A stretch of 64,000 nt of DNA from an uncultured Bacteroidales bacterium (GTDB lineage Bacteria; Bacteroidota; Bacteroidia; Bacteroidales; Paludibacteraceae): contig CACWZZ010000016.1 in NCBI GenBank assembly GCA_902765485.1, forward strand, positions 41,991-105,990, read 5' to 3'. Both the position numbers and the translations under genes were made by a program. The notes below the pieces were generated by a model. It was not told the DNA's origin, did not search any database, and saw only the letters and a list, made by a program, of their open reading frames with translations. Shown here piece by piece: positions 2,060 through 56,003 of this stretch (position 1 is its first letter; each line of letters begins with the position of its first letter).

Positions 2060-2203
2060 GTTGACAGTTATTTAGGAAAAGTCAATCAGTACAACATCTG
2101 TCAAGCAATTTAGGATGGATGTCAACAAATTTAGTACAACTGTAAACTCTTTTAGGAAAGTGTAAACAGATTCCAGAAGAGTGACAAGTAATTTAGTTAA
2201 AAT
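2060..2203. repeat. seven phased ~19-23 bp iteron-like direct repeats (GTyAAC..TTTAGGAAA)
   Basis: Units start at 2060, 2081, 2100, 2121, 2142, 2162, 2181. Positions 2121-2203 recur at 30296-30378 with one mismatch. Confidence 0.8.
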
Positions 2204-2204
2204 A

Positions 2205-2500
2205 TGGCAAAACTGGCAAAACTGACATATAATTTTTTGTTATGACCGTTTTGACCTTTTTGACCGTTTCGCCCCAAACGGTCAATCCGGTCAATCCGGT
2301 CATGTTATTTTTTTGTATTGCACTTTCTGCACTTTTTGCACTTTCTATACTTTTTGACCATCAAAATGCAAATAGTGCAAATAGTGCAATGTCATTTTTT
2401 TGCCACTTTTGCCATTTCTGCCATGTCAAATTTTTTCTTCTTTTACCCCGAATCGGATTCGGGGGCTACTCAAATCGTTATATATTCTTGTATATTCTTA
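2205..2500. repeat. composite non-coding module of six tandem 9-mer word blocks plus hairpin (copy A)
   Basis: GGCAAAACT x2, GACCGTTTT x3, GGTCAATCC x2+, TGCACTTTC x3, TGCAAATAG x3, TGCCACTTT x3; hairpin at 2446-2464; inverted copy at 29967-30242. Confidence 0.85.
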
Positions 2501-2620
2501 ATCATCCGTTACCCATCGCCGACACTCTCTCCTGCCCCTGACCATCCTGTGCCTTGCCCCAAAAGAGCCGACAAATTTATGAAAAACGTAAGAAAACTTG
2601 CATATCTCACAAAAAAGTTG

Positions 2621-18050: not shown

Positions 18051-18060
18051 CAGCAAATTA

Positions 18061-18170
18061 TTCAATTATCGTGCCATAGGAATTCAATTATCGTGCCATA
18101 GGAATTCAATTATCGTGCCATAGGAATTCAATTATGGTGCCATAGGAATTCAATTATCATGCCATAGATA
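18061..18170 (+). repeat. 5 x 22-bp tandem repeat forming the whole aroC leader
   Basis: TTCAATTATCGTGCCATAGGAA repeated head-to-tail; copies 4 and 5 carry 1-3 substitutions; the last copy runs into the ATG. Confidence 0.9.
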
Positions 18171-19144
18171 TGAATGTATTCGGAGATAAATGGACATTTA
18201 CGAGCTTCGGCGAATCGCACGGAGCGGCAATAGGCGGCGTGCTGGACGGCGTTCCCGCAGGGCTGCATATTGATCTGGATCTGATCAACTACGAGTTAGA
18301 CCGCCGTGCAGCACGTAAACGACACGTAAACGACACGGAAACGACACGTAAACGAGACGTAAACGACACAGTAACGGAAGCAGCTTCTTACGGCACATCT
18401 ACCAGAGCTTTTCGTGAACCCGATGAGGTGGAATGGCTCTCCGGTGTCATGGATGGTGTCACTCTCGGCACTCCGATTGCTTTTATAATAAGAAACAAAG
18501 ATGCGCGGCCCGAAGACTACGAGTTTCTCAAACACTCGTACCGCGTCGGGCATGCCGATAAGACGTACGAACAGAAATACGGTATTCGTGACTACCGCGG
18601 AGGAGGCAGAGCCTCAGCCCGAGAGACCGCAGCAAGAGTGGTAGCCGGATGTATAGCAAAACAGCAACTGGCGGCTAAAGGAATCTCCATACAGGCTAAA
18701 CTCATTCAGGTAGGAGCAGAGACAGACCCCGCCAAATTCGCAGACACCATCGAGGCGTACCGGCAAGAAGGAGACTCTATCGGAGGCATCGTGGAATGCG
18801 TCATCGAAGGGCTTCCTGCCGGCACAGGTGAACCGATTTTCAATAAGTTACAAGCCGAACTCGCTTTTGCTATAATGTCCATCAATGCCTGCAAAGGATT
18901 CGAATACGGAACCGGTTTCGGCGGAGTGACGCAACCCGGTTCGGCTATCAACCATATCTCCGGCGGCATCGCAGGAGGAATCGCAGATGGTACTCCGGTC
19001 ACTTTCCGCTGCGTCTTCAAACCCACGCCTTCTACTCCCAAAGCAGGCGTAAAAGGAAGACACGACGCGTGTGTTGCCACTCGCGCCGTGCCTGTCGTGG
19101 AAGCGATGACCGCTATGGCTCTCGCTAACCTGGTTCTCTCTTAA
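18170..19144 (+). CDS. aroC: chorismate synthase (short form with a repeat-derived insertion)
   Basis: FGESHG, GIRDYRGGGRASARETAARV, GRHDACV motifs. Confidence 0.85.
   Translation: MNVFGDKWTFTSFGESHGAAIGGVLDGVPAGLHIDLDLINYELDRRAARKRHVNDTETTRKRDVNDTVTEAASYGTSTRAFREPDEVEWLSGVMDGVTLGTPIAFIIRNKDARPEDYEFLKHSYRVGHADKTYEQKYGIRDYRGGGRASARETAARVVAGCIAKQQLAAKGISIQAKLIQVGAETDPAKFADTIEAYRQEGDSIGGIVECVIEGLPAGTGEPIFNKLQAELAFAIMSINACKGFEYGTGFGGVTQPGSAINHISGGIAGGIADGTPVTFRCVFKPTPSTPKAGVKGRHDACVATRAVPVVEAMTAMALANLVLS
18311..18376 (+). repeat. 6 x 11-bp tandem repeat (ACACGTAAACG) in-frame in aroC
   Basis: 66 nt = 22 codons; encodes ARKRHVNDTETTRKRDVNDTVT after the conserved RR. Confidence 0.9.
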
Positions 19145-28083: not shown

Positions 28084-28123
28084 ATTGTTTGAAATAGTTT
28101 GATGTGTTTGCATAATTCGGGTG

Positions 28124-28131
28124 CAAAGGTA
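28124..28131 (-). promoter_or_regulatory. -7 promoter box (TACCTTTG on minus strand)
   Basis: Only recognisable promoter ahead of the eight-gene cluster 28083-19225. Confidence 0.55.
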
Positions 28132-28240
28132 CTACTTTTTTTTGAAATATACAAACACAAATTGCTGTTTTATTTGCACAAATTGCAGAAAAGTTTGCCT
28201 GATTTCCTGTAATTGCCGATTATTAAGAATCTTATTACAA

Positions 28241-29419
28241 TTAATATACAAAGCCGAACATCCAAAGTGGAATGATATTGCCTATTGCACGCTCCACATC
28301 ATCCTTCACTATAAACCCTTTCCCTTGTGGCACAGAGACTATTTGGGCTTGACCTTTTTTCCGTCCGCCGACCTCAAAAACATATTCTTCCACCTCAAAA
28401 TCAGCCACTTTGGAGGATGAGATAAAATATCTCTCTTGCAGCCATGCAAAGAAAATTGTCTCCCGGATATTGCCTATGTCTGCGTTATTGGGAGAGAGCG
28501 CATAGGCAAAATTGGGATTTTGCAGGTATATTTTCTCCACCTTTTCCAGAATCTTCATGCCTGCCGCTTTCTCGCGCAACGTAGCAATCAGCCCTGCCTT
28601 TTCCAAATACAACATGTATTGTGGCAAGGTATTCCGGCGGATATCCAAATCAGCCGATAACTTGGAGTAATTAGGTTTGAAAGGCACGCTTTGCGAGAGC
28701 ACATACATCAGTTTGCGCAACTTCTGCACCGAAGCAATCTCCATCTCCGCAAAAATAGGAATGTCTGTTTCTATCGTTTGCTTGATTATACCTTGTATCC
28801 TCAGATGATAATGATCTTCTTGGAAGAAAGGAAAGTAGCCTTCGTGCAAATACTGCGAGAACAACTGTAATGGGCGCAAATCCTTATACGGGAACTGCAC
28901 TTTGCCTGCCAATATGTCTTCCAAACTATATGCCGGAAGATTCAGTCCCTGCGAGATATTCACATATTCGCGGAATGAAAGCCCGGGCAGTTTGTACTCA
29001 ATCTTTCTGCGTGACAAATCGGCTCCGCCTTTCTCCAAGTCCAAGATGGAAGAGCCGGTATAAACCACATGCAGTTCCGGAAACTTGTCATAGATATTCT
29101 TGATCTCTTGTGACCATCCTTTGTATTTATGGATTTCGTCAATATACAGATATTTGCCTCCCTGTTGGTAGAATTGCTGCGCCAAACCGACTAAGGTATT
29201 TCGTGAGAAATACAAATCATCGGCAGTCACATACAAAGAGGACGGAACGGCATCGTTCAGTTTGATATGCTGCAACAGCAAAGTGGTCTTACCCACGCCT
29301 CGCGTACCCAGAATGGCAATCAGGCGGCTGTTCCAGTCGATCTCGTCATGCAGATAGCGAACAAAGCGCGTATCTACTCTGTCAATTAAGTCTCTGAATG
29401 ACAATAACAACTCTTCCAT
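28241..29419 (-). CDS. AAA+ ATPase with DUF4143-like C-terminal domain
   Basis: Walker A GTRGVGKTTLL, Walker B YLYIDEIH. Confidence 0.8.
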   Translation of the reverse strand: MEELLLSFRDLIDRVDTRFVRYLHDEIDWNSRLIAILGTRGVGKTTLLLQHIKLNDAVPSSLYVTADDLYFSRNTLVGLAQQFYQQGGKYLYIDEIHKYKGWSQEIKNIYDKFPELHVVYTGSSILDLEKGGADLSRRKIEYKLPGLSFREYVNISQGLNLPAYSLEDILAGKVQFPYKDLRPLQLFSQYLHEGYFPFFQEDHYHLRIQGIIKQTIETDIPIFAEMEIASVQKLRKLMYVLSQSVPFKPNYSKLSADLDIRRNTLPQYMLYLEKAGLIATLREKAAGMKILEKVEKIYLQNPNFAYALSPNNADIGNIRETIFFAWLQERYFISSSKVADFEVEEYVFEVGGRKKGQAQIVSVPQGKGFIVKDDVERAIGNIIPLWMFGFVY

Positions 29420-29585
29420 ATTGTGCTGTATTTAGATTGTTTTTTAGCATTGGCGTTGGCATTAATGGGGTCCCCGACACAAGCCGAAGCCGTGGGCTGT
29501 TTGTGGTGGGGAGAGCGTAGCGTAAGGCGAGTTTCCATTGAGCGGCAGAGCCGCGAGTCGTAACGAGCCTTAACGTAAGCGAGTG

Positions 29586-29593
29586 CAAAGGTA
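29586..29593 (-). promoter_or_regulatory. -7 promoter box (TACCTTTG on minus strand)
   Basis: TAnnTTTG match ~165 nt upstream of the ATPase start (long leader). Confidence 0.5.
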
Positions 29594-29966
29594 CAACTTT
29601 TTTCTGAATTGCGCAATAGAGTGAGCAATTTTTATGTATTTTTGTGCAATTTAGTGTGCATTTTTGTTCCGATGGCTTATATCTTTCGAGTTCTAATTAC
29701 TTGATACTGTCTATAAATTGTGCCAATATACAGATTAGGACAGGACCATCACGGGACCATGGTCCGAGAACGATTTCAGAAAAGTACAATCAAAACAAAA
29801 GCGACGCGTATTCAGGCAACCTCCCAAATGTTTCCGATTATTAAGATATGGGCGTTATACCAAAGTCAGCCCAAAGGCAGCATAAGGTCTGCTGATAAAG
29901 GGGTATTTGAACCGACATTGGACCGAGATAGGAAGGTAATTGGTTCGGTAATGGATAACTAATCAC

Positions 29967-30242
29967 TAAGAATATACAAGAATAACTAACGGTTTATCCG
30001 CCAAACTTGGCGGATGCAATAAAAAAATAACATGGCAGAAATGGCAAAAGTGGCAAAAAAATGATATTGCACTATTTGCACTATTTGCACTTTGATGAGC
30101 GAAAGTGCAAAAAGTGCAGAAAGTGCAAGACAAAAAAAATATATGACCGGATTGACCGAATTGACCGTTTGGGGTGAAACGGTCAAAAAGGTCAAAACGG
30201 TCAGAAAAAAAATGAATGTCAGTTTTGCCAGTTTTGCCAGTC
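29967..30242. repeat. composite 9-mer word module, copy B (inverted relative to 2205-2500)
   Basis: Its reverse complement reproduces all six 9-mer blocks in the same order, with a different hairpin (29997-30014) at the homologous position. Confidence 0.85.
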
Positions 30243-30295
30243 AAAAATTATCCAAAATTGCCCAAAATTAGAATAATTCTGTTATCAGGAGCGCT

Positions 30296-30418
30296 GTCAA
30301 CAAATTTAGTACAACTGTAAACTCTTTTAGGAAAGTGTAAACAGATTCCAGAAAAGTGACAAGTAATTTAGTTAAAATAAGTAAAAAACTGTCAACACTA
30401 TTTAGGAAAAGTCAGTTG
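30296..30418. repeat. iteron-like ~20-bp repeat array, copy B (direct relative to 2121-2203)
   Basis: 82/83 identity to 2121-2203, plus a further unit sharing TATTTAGGAAAAGTCA with 2068-2083. Confidence 0.85.
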
Positions 30419-31256: not shown

Positions 31257-31300
31257 ATCAATTAGTTTTTGAGTTAATAGATTTGTCCTAAATCCGAGTG

Positions 31301-31308
31301 CAAAGGTA
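31301..31308 (-). promoter_or_regulatory. -7 promoter box (TACCTTTG on minus strand)
   Basis: TAnnTTTG match 45 nt upstream of 31256. Confidence 0.55.
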
Positions 31309-31598
31309 CAACATTTTTTTGACATACACAAAAAAAATGTGCACTTCGCGAAAAAAGTACACAATTTTTTCAATATTAAGACGTTTTGTCCGATTATTTT
31401 ACCACTACCGGCTCGTATTTCGGTACAAGCGCCTTCATTACACTCCATCCGATCAGGTAAGTGTGTTCTGCTGATAGAAAGAACCAGCCTGCTCGGAGGT
31501 GAAGCAGGCAAGAAAAGGCGTTTTGCTATAGATTCTTGAAGATAAGGGGCATGGCTTCGGGGGCTAAGGGGTTGGTAGGAAGCCTAATCGCGATCTTT

Positions 31599-38173: not shown

Positions 38174-38204
38174 TCTCCGTCTATTAGCCCCGAATTTTAT
38201 TCGG
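38174..38204. repeat. REP-like hairpin element, copy 1 (contains the stop codon of the Y1 gene)
   Basis: CTCCGTCTATTAGC + CCCGAAT-TTT-ATTCGGG. Confidence 0.7.
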
Positions 38205-39231
38205 GTTTGTTCAAAGCCTCGCATATTTCCTCTGCCATTTTATTCATCGCCACACACTCGGCTCTGGTCACATGCGGCTTGTCCGGATCATGCTGCCACG
38301 GCGATAGTATCAACATCCTTCCCTCTGCGACCGCCTCAAACAATCCCTCTGCAGGTTTGTAATACTCGCCAAATCCATTCTCCGCGATATAAATAATGGT
38401 ATGTTTCTCGCGCAGCAACACCTCCAATACCTCTTTCTCTTTCGGACTAATGAACGGCGACACCATCACAGTCCCTTTACGAGCCGCCAGCACACATCCG
38501 TTCATATACTCGCGTAGCCGTGTCGCGTCTCCATGCTGCTCAGCATCTTCCACCCAAATCCTCCGCACATGTACCGGCGAGAACTTCTCTGCCTGCAAAA
38601 TGCCTATATTCCCAATTCCGCTATATTTCTGTCCCGCTATCTCTATATCTCGCTGCACTCTGAAATATCCCGGCATCAACCTTTTCGTTGCTAACCTCTG
38701 CGGGTTCATCTGCACATAGCGGATCATCGTTTGTAGTTGTCCCTTGTGTGACATTGGACGCACAAACGGGCGCTCCGTGAAGATCGGAAATGGGAGGCCT
38801 CCATTCCCTTCTCTCGCATTATTTGCCATTCCCTCTCCGTCCATTAGCCCCGAATTTAATTCGGGATAAATCAACGGAGAATATGCCCGTCCTATTTTCT
38901 TAACGCCCTGCCACAAACTGCGGATTACATTATTTATACTTTGTGTCATCGGCTTGGTGACATAGTATATTACATGCAAGTGATCGGGCATCAAACAATG
39001 CTGTATTACCTTTATCTCCGGATAGTAATGATTGATGCGTAATGCTTCTTCTGTTATCCGGTCCCCAAGTTCTGTCCTTTCCACCGCCGCTTGTTTCGGA
39101 TCATTCTCCGGAATGACAAGCCTCCCCAACAAAGCCTCTCTGCTTGGCACAACCAGCGTAACATGGTAAATGCCGACACCTCTCCATGCCGTTCCCATTT
39201 CTTGCCATTTCCATGTCTCCTGTTCTGCCAT
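38197..39231 (-). CDS. RayT/IS200-like Y1 (HUH) transposase domain fused to a DprA/SLOG-like C-terminal domain
   Basis: HUH motif PDHLHVIYY; Y-motif IRYVQMNPQR. C-terminus aligns by eye to the DprA core (GNIGILQ, VHVRR, GTVMVSPF, TIIYIAENGF, GRMLILSP). Confidence 0.65.
   Translation of the reverse strand: MAEQETWKWQEMGTAWRGVGIYHVTLVVPSREALLGRLVIPENDPKQAAVERTELGDRITEEALRINHYYPEIKVIQHCLMPDHLHVIYYVTKPMTQSINNVIRSLWQGVKKIGRAYSPLIYPELNSGLMDGEGMANNAREGNGGLPFPIFTERPFVRPMSHKGQLQTMIRYVQMNPQRLATKRLMPGYFRVQRDIEIAGQKYSGIGNIGILQAEKFSPVHVRRIWVEDAEQHGDATRLREYMNGCVLAARKGTVMVSPFISPKEKEVLEVLLREKHTIIYIAENGFGEYYKPAEGLFEAVAEGRMLILSPWQHDPDKPHVTRAECVAMNKMAEEICEALNKPE
38835..38865. repeat. REP-like hairpin element, copy 2 (in-frame inside the Y1 gene)
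   Basis: CTCCGTCCATTAGC + CCCGAAT-TTA-ATTCGGG; encodes YPELNSGLMDGE. Confidence 0.7.
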
Positions 39232-46476: not shown

Positions 46477-46547
46477 AATTGTTAGATTTTATTATGTTAA
46501 ATGATGTTGTTTTTCGCTCCTTTATGCCTTGCATAAAATTACGGCTG

Positions 46548-46555
46548 CAAAGGTA
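46548..46555 (-). promoter_or_regulatory. -7 promoter box (TACCTTTG on minus strand)
   Basis: TAnnTTTG match 72 nt upstream of uxaC. Confidence 0.55.
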
Positions 46556-46609
46556 CTACTTTTTTTGCAAACAAATGTGGAAAAATTGACATAAAAATTA
46601 CACATTCTC

Positions 46610-55887: not shown

Positions 55888-55922
55888 AGAATATATTTTT
55901 TAGTTATTTTCAAAATCCGCCA

Positions 55923-55930
55923 CAAAGGTA
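55923..55930 (-). promoter_or_regulatory. -7 promoter box (TACCTTTG on minus strand)
   Basis: 36 nt upstream of 55887. Confidence 0.55.
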
Positions 55931-56003
55931 CTGCTTTTTTTTAATATACACAATATTTTCAAGAAAATTTTACTAATTTCTTGCGTATTCCAAAAAAATG
56001 TAG

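Follow-up and report, generated by a model that had tools for sequence, protein, structure and literature searches.

The window analysed here, a 64,000-nucleotide stretch of DNA from an uncultured Bacteroidales bacterium, contains at positions 2205-2500 a module that an earlier note described as non-coding and built from six different tandem 9-mer words with overall dyad symmetry, recognising in it no described class of element. The locus raises the question of what kind of element is put together in this way, and by what means its copies are kept and changed.

Tandem Repeats Finder (TRF) bore out the six blocks within 2205-2500 as six adjacent period-9 arrays (2205-2224, 2239-2269, 2279-2302, 2319-2346, 2367-2389 and 2397-2424), but only three words are involved, the remaining blocks being their reverse complements. 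In the predicted fold of this copy, hereafter copy A, block 1 pairs with block 6, of which it had been said to be roughly the reverse complement, block 2 pairs with block 3 and block 4 with block 5. The hairpin GACCGTTT-CGCCCC-AAACGGTC noted from blocks 2 and 3 is present on direct reading, as are the perfect hairpin at 2446-2464 and the TTCTTGTATATTCTTA tail. The 4/5 pairing was absent from the earlier description, and the dyad symmetry is a nested one: hairpins 2/3 and 4/5 each stand alone and are enclosed by the outer stem 1/6, after which the GC hairpin and the conserved tail follow. The 301-nt stretch 2200-2500 was predicted to fold into a three-way junction on either strand (z = -13 and -12 relative to dinucleotide shuffles), and single hairpin units folded as single-stranded DNA at about -20 kcal/mol (z = -5.5 to -7.3, varying with unit and strand).

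For searches with these units a covariance model was built from five units of four word types, in which only 18 outer base pairs were used because the first alignment had placed the GCACT units one base out of register. All parts of copy A lie on the + strand. A U block of seven direct repeats of about 20-21 nt (TGTCAAC..TTTAGGA; 2060..2204) lies upstream of the 9-mer part as an optional module in its own right. Block 1 (2205..2228), delimited by TRF and by its fold pairing with block 6, consists of two copies of TGGCAAAAC plus TGACAT and is the 5' arm of the outer stem. The GACCG hairpin unit (2231..2314), which matched the model at 84.5 bits and folded as single-stranded DNA at -20.5 kcal/mol (z -7.3), has the lead AATTTTTTGTTA, arms at 2243-2269 and 2276-2302, the loop CGCCCC at 2270-2275 and the trailer TGTTATTTTTTT. 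It is followed by the GCACT hairpin unit (2316..2401; 39.6 bits, fold z -7.1), with arms at 2319-2354 and 2362-2388 and the trailer ATGTCATTTTTTT, and by block 6 (2401..2428; TRF and fold), which reads TGCCACTTT TGCCATTTC TGCCAT plus GTCA and is the 3' arm of the outer stem. The optional GC hairpin CCCCGAAT-CGG-ATTCGGGG (2446..2464; -8.4 kcal/mol) and the tail CGTTATATATTCTTGTATATTCTTAATCATCCGTTACCCATCGCCGA (2476..2522), which cross-species alignment resolved into three to four direct repeats of about 10 nt (nnATTCTTAG), complete the element.

A mirror-image set of arrays found by TRF on the opposite strand at 30032-30241 constitutes copy B. Its parts on the - strand are block 1 (30220..30241; TRF), the GACCG hairpin unit (30132..30215; 73.9 bits), the GCACT hairpin unit (30055..30140; model match G000:C16:72045-72130, 50.5 bits), block 6 (30032..30059; TRF) and the tail (29945..29991; inverted repeat I3 and tail search). 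The slot of the optional hairpin is occupied by an alternative GC hairpin, ATCCGCCAAGTTTGGCGGAT (29996..30015, - strand), the same as in the copies at C24 and C1:48700. The U block of copy B (30287..30387, + strand; direct repeat D3, 93 %) has the same genomic orientation as that of copy A and is therefore inverted relative to the copy B units.

Open reading frames of 99 and 107 amino acids can be called across the module, as an unrecognised coding sequence would require, but the ATG at 2242 which opens the 99-amino-acid frame is CTG in most copies, and neither start codon nor reading frame is kept across copies. A coding sequence was ruled out on these grounds, and the non-coding status claimed for the module stands. 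The lengths of the T-runs also vary between copies. An assembly artefact, which had been named as a possible refutation, was excluded by the presence of the copy A locus in two independent assemblies (an ENA assembly and a Logan contig) and of the family in metagenome-assembled genomes (MAGs) from several studies. The 9-mer copy number is unequal in the two assemblies of this locus; the ENA assembly has three block-1 repeats and two extra U repeats relative to the window, and block 1 has three copies in the sister species too. That artefact or overlooked coding sequence should explain the module is thus hardly conceivable. No Rfam family matched even at permissive thresholds, the search yielding only sub-threshold miRNA-hairpin noise (best 27.6 bits against a gathering score of 50). 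Searches of phage and plasmid collections returned nothing matching, and IMG/VR contained no unit match, just two chance matches to the tail pattern. The module is no known RNA or IS family, no ORF and no assembly artefact.

The genome to which the window belongs (G000) is a 2.1-Mb MAG, 83 % complete. A search by BLAST and covariance model, as had been proposed for establishing copy number, placed about 14 element loci in it, all intergenic. The module is thus not unique, and the supposed two copies belong to a family of exchangeable hairpin units that extends across the genus. When the whole genome was scanned at lag 9, 81 arrays were obtained, and since 13 of the 16 clusters with at least two arrays belong to the 9-mer hairpin family, the module is more than a chance arrangement. 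The order of modules is fixed (U block, block 1, GACCG unit, GCACT unit, block 6, GC hairpin, tail) and their presence varies. The GACCG unit occurs in 13 of the 14 loci; the U block, which has only three occurrences in this genome (C2 once, C16 twice), block 1, the GCACT unit, block 6 and the GC hairpin are all optional. Block 6 is present without block 1 in seven other copies, and the hairpin slot is filled by one of three hairpin kinds, depending on the copy. The tail has a single orientation in this genome and always follows the units.

The unit was found with the covariance model in 54 of 151 genomes of the same genus, in none of 143 genomes from 32 other genera of the family and in none of 149 genomes from other families of the order; among the genomes searched it is restricted to one genus. 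The carriers are Paludibacteraceae or uncultured Bacteroidales MAGs from ruminant guts, obtained in several studies. Relatives within the genus have the same architecture with other words and the same fixed-order mosaic of present and absent modules, which is the arrangement that defines a BIME. The tail is the part of the element with the best sequence conservation across the genus.

The grammar of the family was drawn from about 130 parsed units. A unit is about 85 nt long and polar, and runs from a T-rich lead, (c)TAAAAATTTGC or AATTTTTTGTTC, through three 9-mers, a C-rich loop and three complementary 9-mers to TGTCA, or more generally TG(T/C)(C/A)A, and about seven T. The 9-mers of the 5' arm have the form TG-nnnn-xx-T, where xx is two pyrimidines, and those of the 3' arm the form A-yy-nnnn-CA. 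The loop has 6-8 nt and is mostly C-rich, reaching up to about 100 nt when it contains other repeats or half-units, and units with different words are chained in fixed order or nested inside one another's loops. A related loop insert of about 90 nt (CTTACAAAA...CTATCAAAAAGATAG), conserved between species, was seen at L148 (G068), L156 (G023), L158 (G099) and L168 (G072), and in G017 as many as ten 11-nt TTAAACCACCT repeats lie within a unit loop. Some ten words are found again in several species, the shared ones being TGACCG, TGACCA, TGTCAG, TGAGAA, TGAGAC, TGGCAC, TGACAC, TGGCAA, TGGCAT, TGCACT and TGGCGA.

Covariance analysis, suggested earlier for the case that more than ten copies exist, was carried out, and the arms covary. 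Positions 3-6 of the 9-mer change together in the two arms (e.g. CG 46 / AU 37; CG 67 / GC 17), TG/CA is nearly invariant, one pair being without any variation and the others kept in about 87-93 % of rows, and positions 7-8 form a pyrimidine mismatch that is conserved, with no pairing in 45-76 of 85 rows. These pair counts describe an arm of three helices of about 7 bp split by fixed 2x2 pyrimidine mismatches. The covariation score was 0.393, compared with 0.136 in shuffles (0/500 reached 0.393) and at most 0.078 with a slid partner, in an alignment that was fitted to the structure and whose 89 rows include the weaker opposite-strand match of many units. The sense strand of a unit always scored far above the antisense strand, and its unpaired parts are pyrimidine-rich (T.T 142 and T.C/C.T 73, against 27 A.A). 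On neither strand do G.U pairs (34) outnumber A.C (41), so that no RNA strand is marked.

Such arrays could also be bound by sequence-specific DNA-binding proteins, much as operators, centromeres or iterons are, each word being read by its own protein and the tail and U block serving as further binding arrays. Ribbon-helix-helix proteins bind 7-9-bp sub-sites in direct plus inverted order, and the strict 9-bp period, the three direct and three inverted copies with their nearly invariant TG/CA, the small vocabulary of words kept across species and the direct repeats of about 10 bp in the tail and about 20-21 bp in the U block would all suit this explanation. A symmetric duplex site does not, however, predict the strand asymmetry observed: the two arms have T-rich spacers on one and the same strand rather than in mirror arrangement, and the lead, trailer and loops are strand-asymmetric as well. 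Up to three words occur per element, words are swapped at the same locus in sister species, and the neighbours are unrelated housekeeping genes with no recurrent regulator; an adjacent gene for Rep, ParB/ParR or a regulator was not found recurring at the loci. Protein-binding arrays therefore seem an unlikely explanation. The covariation of the hairpins, the fixed mismatch and the strand polarity favour a single strand that folds back on itself over a symmetric duplex site.

Twelve of the 14 copies in the window's own genome lie just downstream of a co-oriented gene. Among 92 loci of the genus, classified on crude, heuristic ORF calls, 30 were in sense and 37 in antisense orientation within co-directional gene pairs, 17 lay between convergent and eight between divergent genes. 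A rule that units never lie between divergent genes was true for the first 39 loci and was dropped when the larger set was available. With homologous loci collapsed, the median distance from the last unit to the next start codon was 325 nt at 25 sense loci, and that from the lead to the next start codon was 46.5 nt at 20 antisense loci; the difference was significant after subtraction of 110 nt for the tail (Mann-Whitney p = 3e-4), and part of it may come from uncounted tail-side modules. The GC skew in these contigs is too noisy for any replication-strand bias to be read. Neighbouring genes are unrelated and none is recurrent; they include those for an LRR protein, an XRE HTH protein, an EPSPS-GT2 fusion and an AAA_14 ATPase, among others. 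A mobile-element context was considered and rejected, the flanking genes being ordinary; one recurrent island locus lies beside a DUF3987 gene, and most loci do not.

The position of the copies behind genes, the run of 7-8 T after each hairpin, the long spacers after sense copies and the canonical Bacteroidetes-type promoters (TAnnTTTG) between the tail and the next gene in both window copies suggest the possibility that the units are tandem intrinsic terminators, which mainly end the transcript of the upstream gene. An intrinsic terminator has a GC-rich stem with the U-tract within 0-2 nt, but here the T-run starts 5 nt past the stem, and a consensus scan of 1900-2800 found no terminator. Single arms, block 6 for instance, persist where the partner is missing, the 37 antisense loci lie inside co-directional gene pairs, and both the triplicated words and the conserved tail would be left unexplained. 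Termination as the main function is accordingly doubtful, and a terminator role of the units is only hinted at by their sequence.

In other species, a conserved 26-nt leader, AGAAAGAAACTAAATAGCGAAGATAG, is all that separates the unit lead from the ATG in at least seven different genes of sugar-nucleotide or glycan loci (L073, L077, L110, L173, L181, L182 and L075/L051). A search for it covered the window's own genome, where it is absent, and five regions of 14-20 kb from other species; each of the three matches obtained was next to units. The Bacteroidetes promoter consists of a -7 motif TAnnTTTG with TTTG at -33. A promoter within the lead itself was rejected, TAAAAATTTG being one base off TAnnTTTG with no -33 TTTG at the right spacing. 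The repeat family D2 of the window (28118-28164, 29580-29626, 31295-31341, 46542-46588 and 55917-55963) is a Bacteroidetes-type promoter (TTTG...TAnnTTTG, here GTACCTTTGCA) with an A/T-rich spacer, and not a mobile repeat. Other short repeats were noticed near the start of the ORF at 18170, namely a 22-nt tandem repeat, ATTCAATTATCGTGCCATAGGA, in 4.9 copies at 18060-18167 and an 11-nt repeat, CACGTAAACGA, in 5.6 copies at 18312-18374. The same genome has a second 9-mer family, (T/A)AACTAG(A/T)nn, with 3-10 tandem copies in short gaps within gene strings (for example G000:C6:50216-50275, C2:51941-51998, C9:57330-57369, C11:4854-4897 and C5:2352-2386); its arrays usually stop a few bases before a start codon and resemble the TAACTGA repeats of PMC4679880.

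How the elements change was followed by comparison with a sister species (G108), whose flanking sequences are 92-97 % identical to those of G000. Eight G108 element loci were traced by BLAST with their flanks. Seven matched places in G000 that also carry the element, and the eighth had no counterpart in the G000 assembly; among the seven traceable loci no empty site was found. At the two loci compared residue by residue the element is kept in both species, with other internal units in each. The C26 locus contains one GCACT unit in G108 and, in G000, GACCG, block 6 and a GC hairpin, with an identical tail; at the C25 locus, G108 has three block 1 copies, GACCG and block 6, and G000 has GACCG and GCACT. 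Element loci thus persist between sister species while their internal units change. At the locus beside the DUF3987 gene the word likewise varies by species (TGACCG, TGACCA, TGTCAG or TGCACT). The GACCG unit at G000:C17:23693-23776 has the loop GGGGCG in place of CGCCCC with the arms unchanged, and the same state is kept in G108 on contig C4 (L092 3049-3132); such a flip is expected exactly from recombination between the inverted arms. Gene order is broken at the element loci in G116, a more distant genome, and exact boundaries are unreadable there. Several copies sit where gene content differs between G000 and G108. The AAA_14/DUF4143 ATPase gene at 28241-29419 (- strand) and about 500 nt after the tail of copy B are absent at the orthologous place in G108, where an FMN-reductase region comes directly after the tail, and G108 has extra segments of 1.2-2.5 kb beside both window copies.

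Transposition was considered as the source of the copies: in that case the units would be REPIN- or MITE-like, and an HUH/Y1 (RayT-type) or other transposase with its gene at another place in the genome would actively mobilise them in the form of single-stranded hairpins. The hairpins with their conserved flanks, and the fact that some unit loops enclose further units or half-units, are consistent with this. A candidate enzyme is present in the window, a RayT-like protein of 344 amino acids (38197-39231, - strand) with DHLH, WQ and YVQMNP motifs in the order that is the signature of class-2 TnpA-REP (RAYT) enzymes (Table 1, PMC6006769); it had no Pfam or PDB match. The RayT-like family is represented by four copies in G000 and was found in 85 of the 151 genomes of the genus, where it co-occurs with the units at an odds ratio of about 3.3. 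The RayT-like genes carry a different hairpin, however, being flanked and interrupted by CCCGAAT...ATTCGGG hairpins and not by 9-mer units. Hairpins flanking and inside the gene have been reported for subclass 2.4 (PMC6006769). The GC hairpin of the type at 2446-2464 also flanks and interrupts these genes, at 38174-38214, at 38834-38874 and inside the C18 paralogue. Fourteen genomes, two of them 100 % complete, have units and no RayT-like homologue, the GTAG or CGTC foot is absent from the units, and the seven G108 loci with G000 counterparts showed no presence/absence polymorphism. A MITE has terminal inverted repeats that match a parent IS, target-site duplications, and filled as opposed to empty sites. 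No terminal inverted repeats were found here; in the window's own genome, lead and tail are unrelated, the tail has one orientation and no tail pair surrounds any gene. Active transposition is on this evidence distinctly improbable. Recombination or template switching is preferred, since no inverted ends, no partner gene and, among the sister-species loci that could be traced, no empty site were found, yet units are swapped quickly and a loop has flipped.

We therefore favour, with confidence only slightly above even, a genus-specific, non-coding and non-autonomous mosaic hairpin repeat of the REP/BIME-like kind, which is reshuffled by recombination and has possible orientation-dependent effects on transcripts. 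The units would fold back as single-stranded DNA or RNA, and dispersed copies would be homogenised and reshuffled through recombination, template switching and slippage between them, with no dedicated transposase. Any effect on the cell would probably resemble that of REP/BIME sequences, in the form of stable hairpins at gene boundaries: in sense orientation, where U-runs follow the hairpins, units may mark or help to form the 3' ends of transcripts, and in antisense orientation they would be read through inside operons. Against this explanation count the antisense loci in co-directional pairs, the eight between divergent genes, the 5-nt gap before the T-run with no terminator in the scan of 1900-2800, and G.U pairs that do not exceed A.C; pure drift with recombination is also not an obvious cause of the 9-nt period, the nearly invariant TG/CA and the fixed mismatch. 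A less conventional possibility, and an improbable one in our judgement, is that the units are substrates of an undescribed reader of a hairpin 'code', be it a recombinase or nuclease that recognises structure or a group of proteins each binding its own word, which exchanges whole units between loci. If this were so, recognition would depend on the near-invariant TG/CA ends, on the pyrimidine mismatches at fixed positions and on the register of 9 nt, and unit exchange would create variable cassettes at gene boundaries, including the conserved 26-nt leader directly before start codons in glycan-synthesis loci of related species.

The favoured explanation, a recombining mosaic hairpin repeat, does not leave the module outside every described class, as had been stated before; in kind it joins the dispersed mosaic palindromic repeats (REP/BIME, BrickBuilt-type and short tandem-word repeats). 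It is not homologous to any of these, and it fails the defining sequence features of REP/BIME and BrickBuilt. Like the REP, BIME and REPIN sequences of Proteobacteria, the units are dispersed, extragenic, imperfect palindromes in fixed order with linker motifs, found at gene ends and inside operons, restricted to a lineage and with conserved mismatches in the hairpins. They differ in having hairpins of about 65 nt made from triplicated 9-mers with arms of 27 nt each, rather than 20-40-nt stems, in having feet that read TTTGCA|TG and CA|TGTCA instead of GTAG or CGTC, in their many word variants with fully covarying arms, in the conserved non-palindromic tail and in their low number (about 14 loci per genome), and the RayT-like genes of the genome carry another hairpin. 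A comparable, REP/BIME-like TGCACTTT nonamer hairpin exists in other Bacteroidales genomes. A REP is an imperfect palindrome of 20-40 nt whose foot bears the conserved tetranucleotide GTAG or CGTC (PMC3733652); REPs have been proposed to act as terminators or mRNA stabilisers (PMC3733652; bioRxiv 10.64898/2026.03.23.713779), and reported to combine both roles (bioRxiv 10.64898/2026.03.23.713779). BrickBuilt of Porphyromonas gingivalis is a MITE/minisatellite with one 23-nt direct tandem repeat and small inverted-repeat ends (PMC4596501). With BrickBuilt (about 19 copies) the element shares a Bacteroidales host, a layout of leader, internal tandem repeats and tail, a narrow host range and a consistently intergenic position, whereas its 9-mer triplets are inverted and form hairpins, several words occur per element and inverted ends are missing.

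Among short tandem-word repeats, the cyanobacterial STRRs are heptamers. The TAACTGA repeats are intergenic direct repeats (PMC4679880). Both resemble the present element as short words in few tandem copies in intergenic DNA, often beside start codons and common to related species, but they are direct 7-mers without an obligatory inverted partner, whereas here the period is 9 and the inverted triplet covaries. Integron attC sites are arrayed with cassettes and have an R''/L''...L'/R' organisation with RYYYAAC and GTTRRRY cores. They are likewise imperfect palindromes of similar length, often downstream of genes, in which structure including fixed unpaired positions is kept and sequence varies, but the units lack both cores, end in TGnnnn...nnnnCA and abut without cassettes, and no integrase link was seen. 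Integron-like cassette arrays were ruled out, as at most two adjacent gaps carried units in five 14-20-kb regions.

The element is thus a real, genus-wide family with a well-defined grammar, and varies a kind of palindromic repeat already known in other bacteria. Gut and rumen communities are dominated by Bacteroidales, whose intergenic repeats are to our knowledge almost undescribed. In practice such repeats break short-read assemblies and yield spurious ORF calls. The grammar of this family is unusually clean, with a 9-nt register, near-invariant ends, a fixed mismatch and a few covarying words, and its units turn over rapidly at conserved loci. Three questions about palindromic repeats thereby become tractable: by what route they multiply and are kept alike when no transposase is obvious, whether transcription at gene boundaries is tuned by them and, as several copies lie at gene-content differences between sister species, whether they seed rearrangements.
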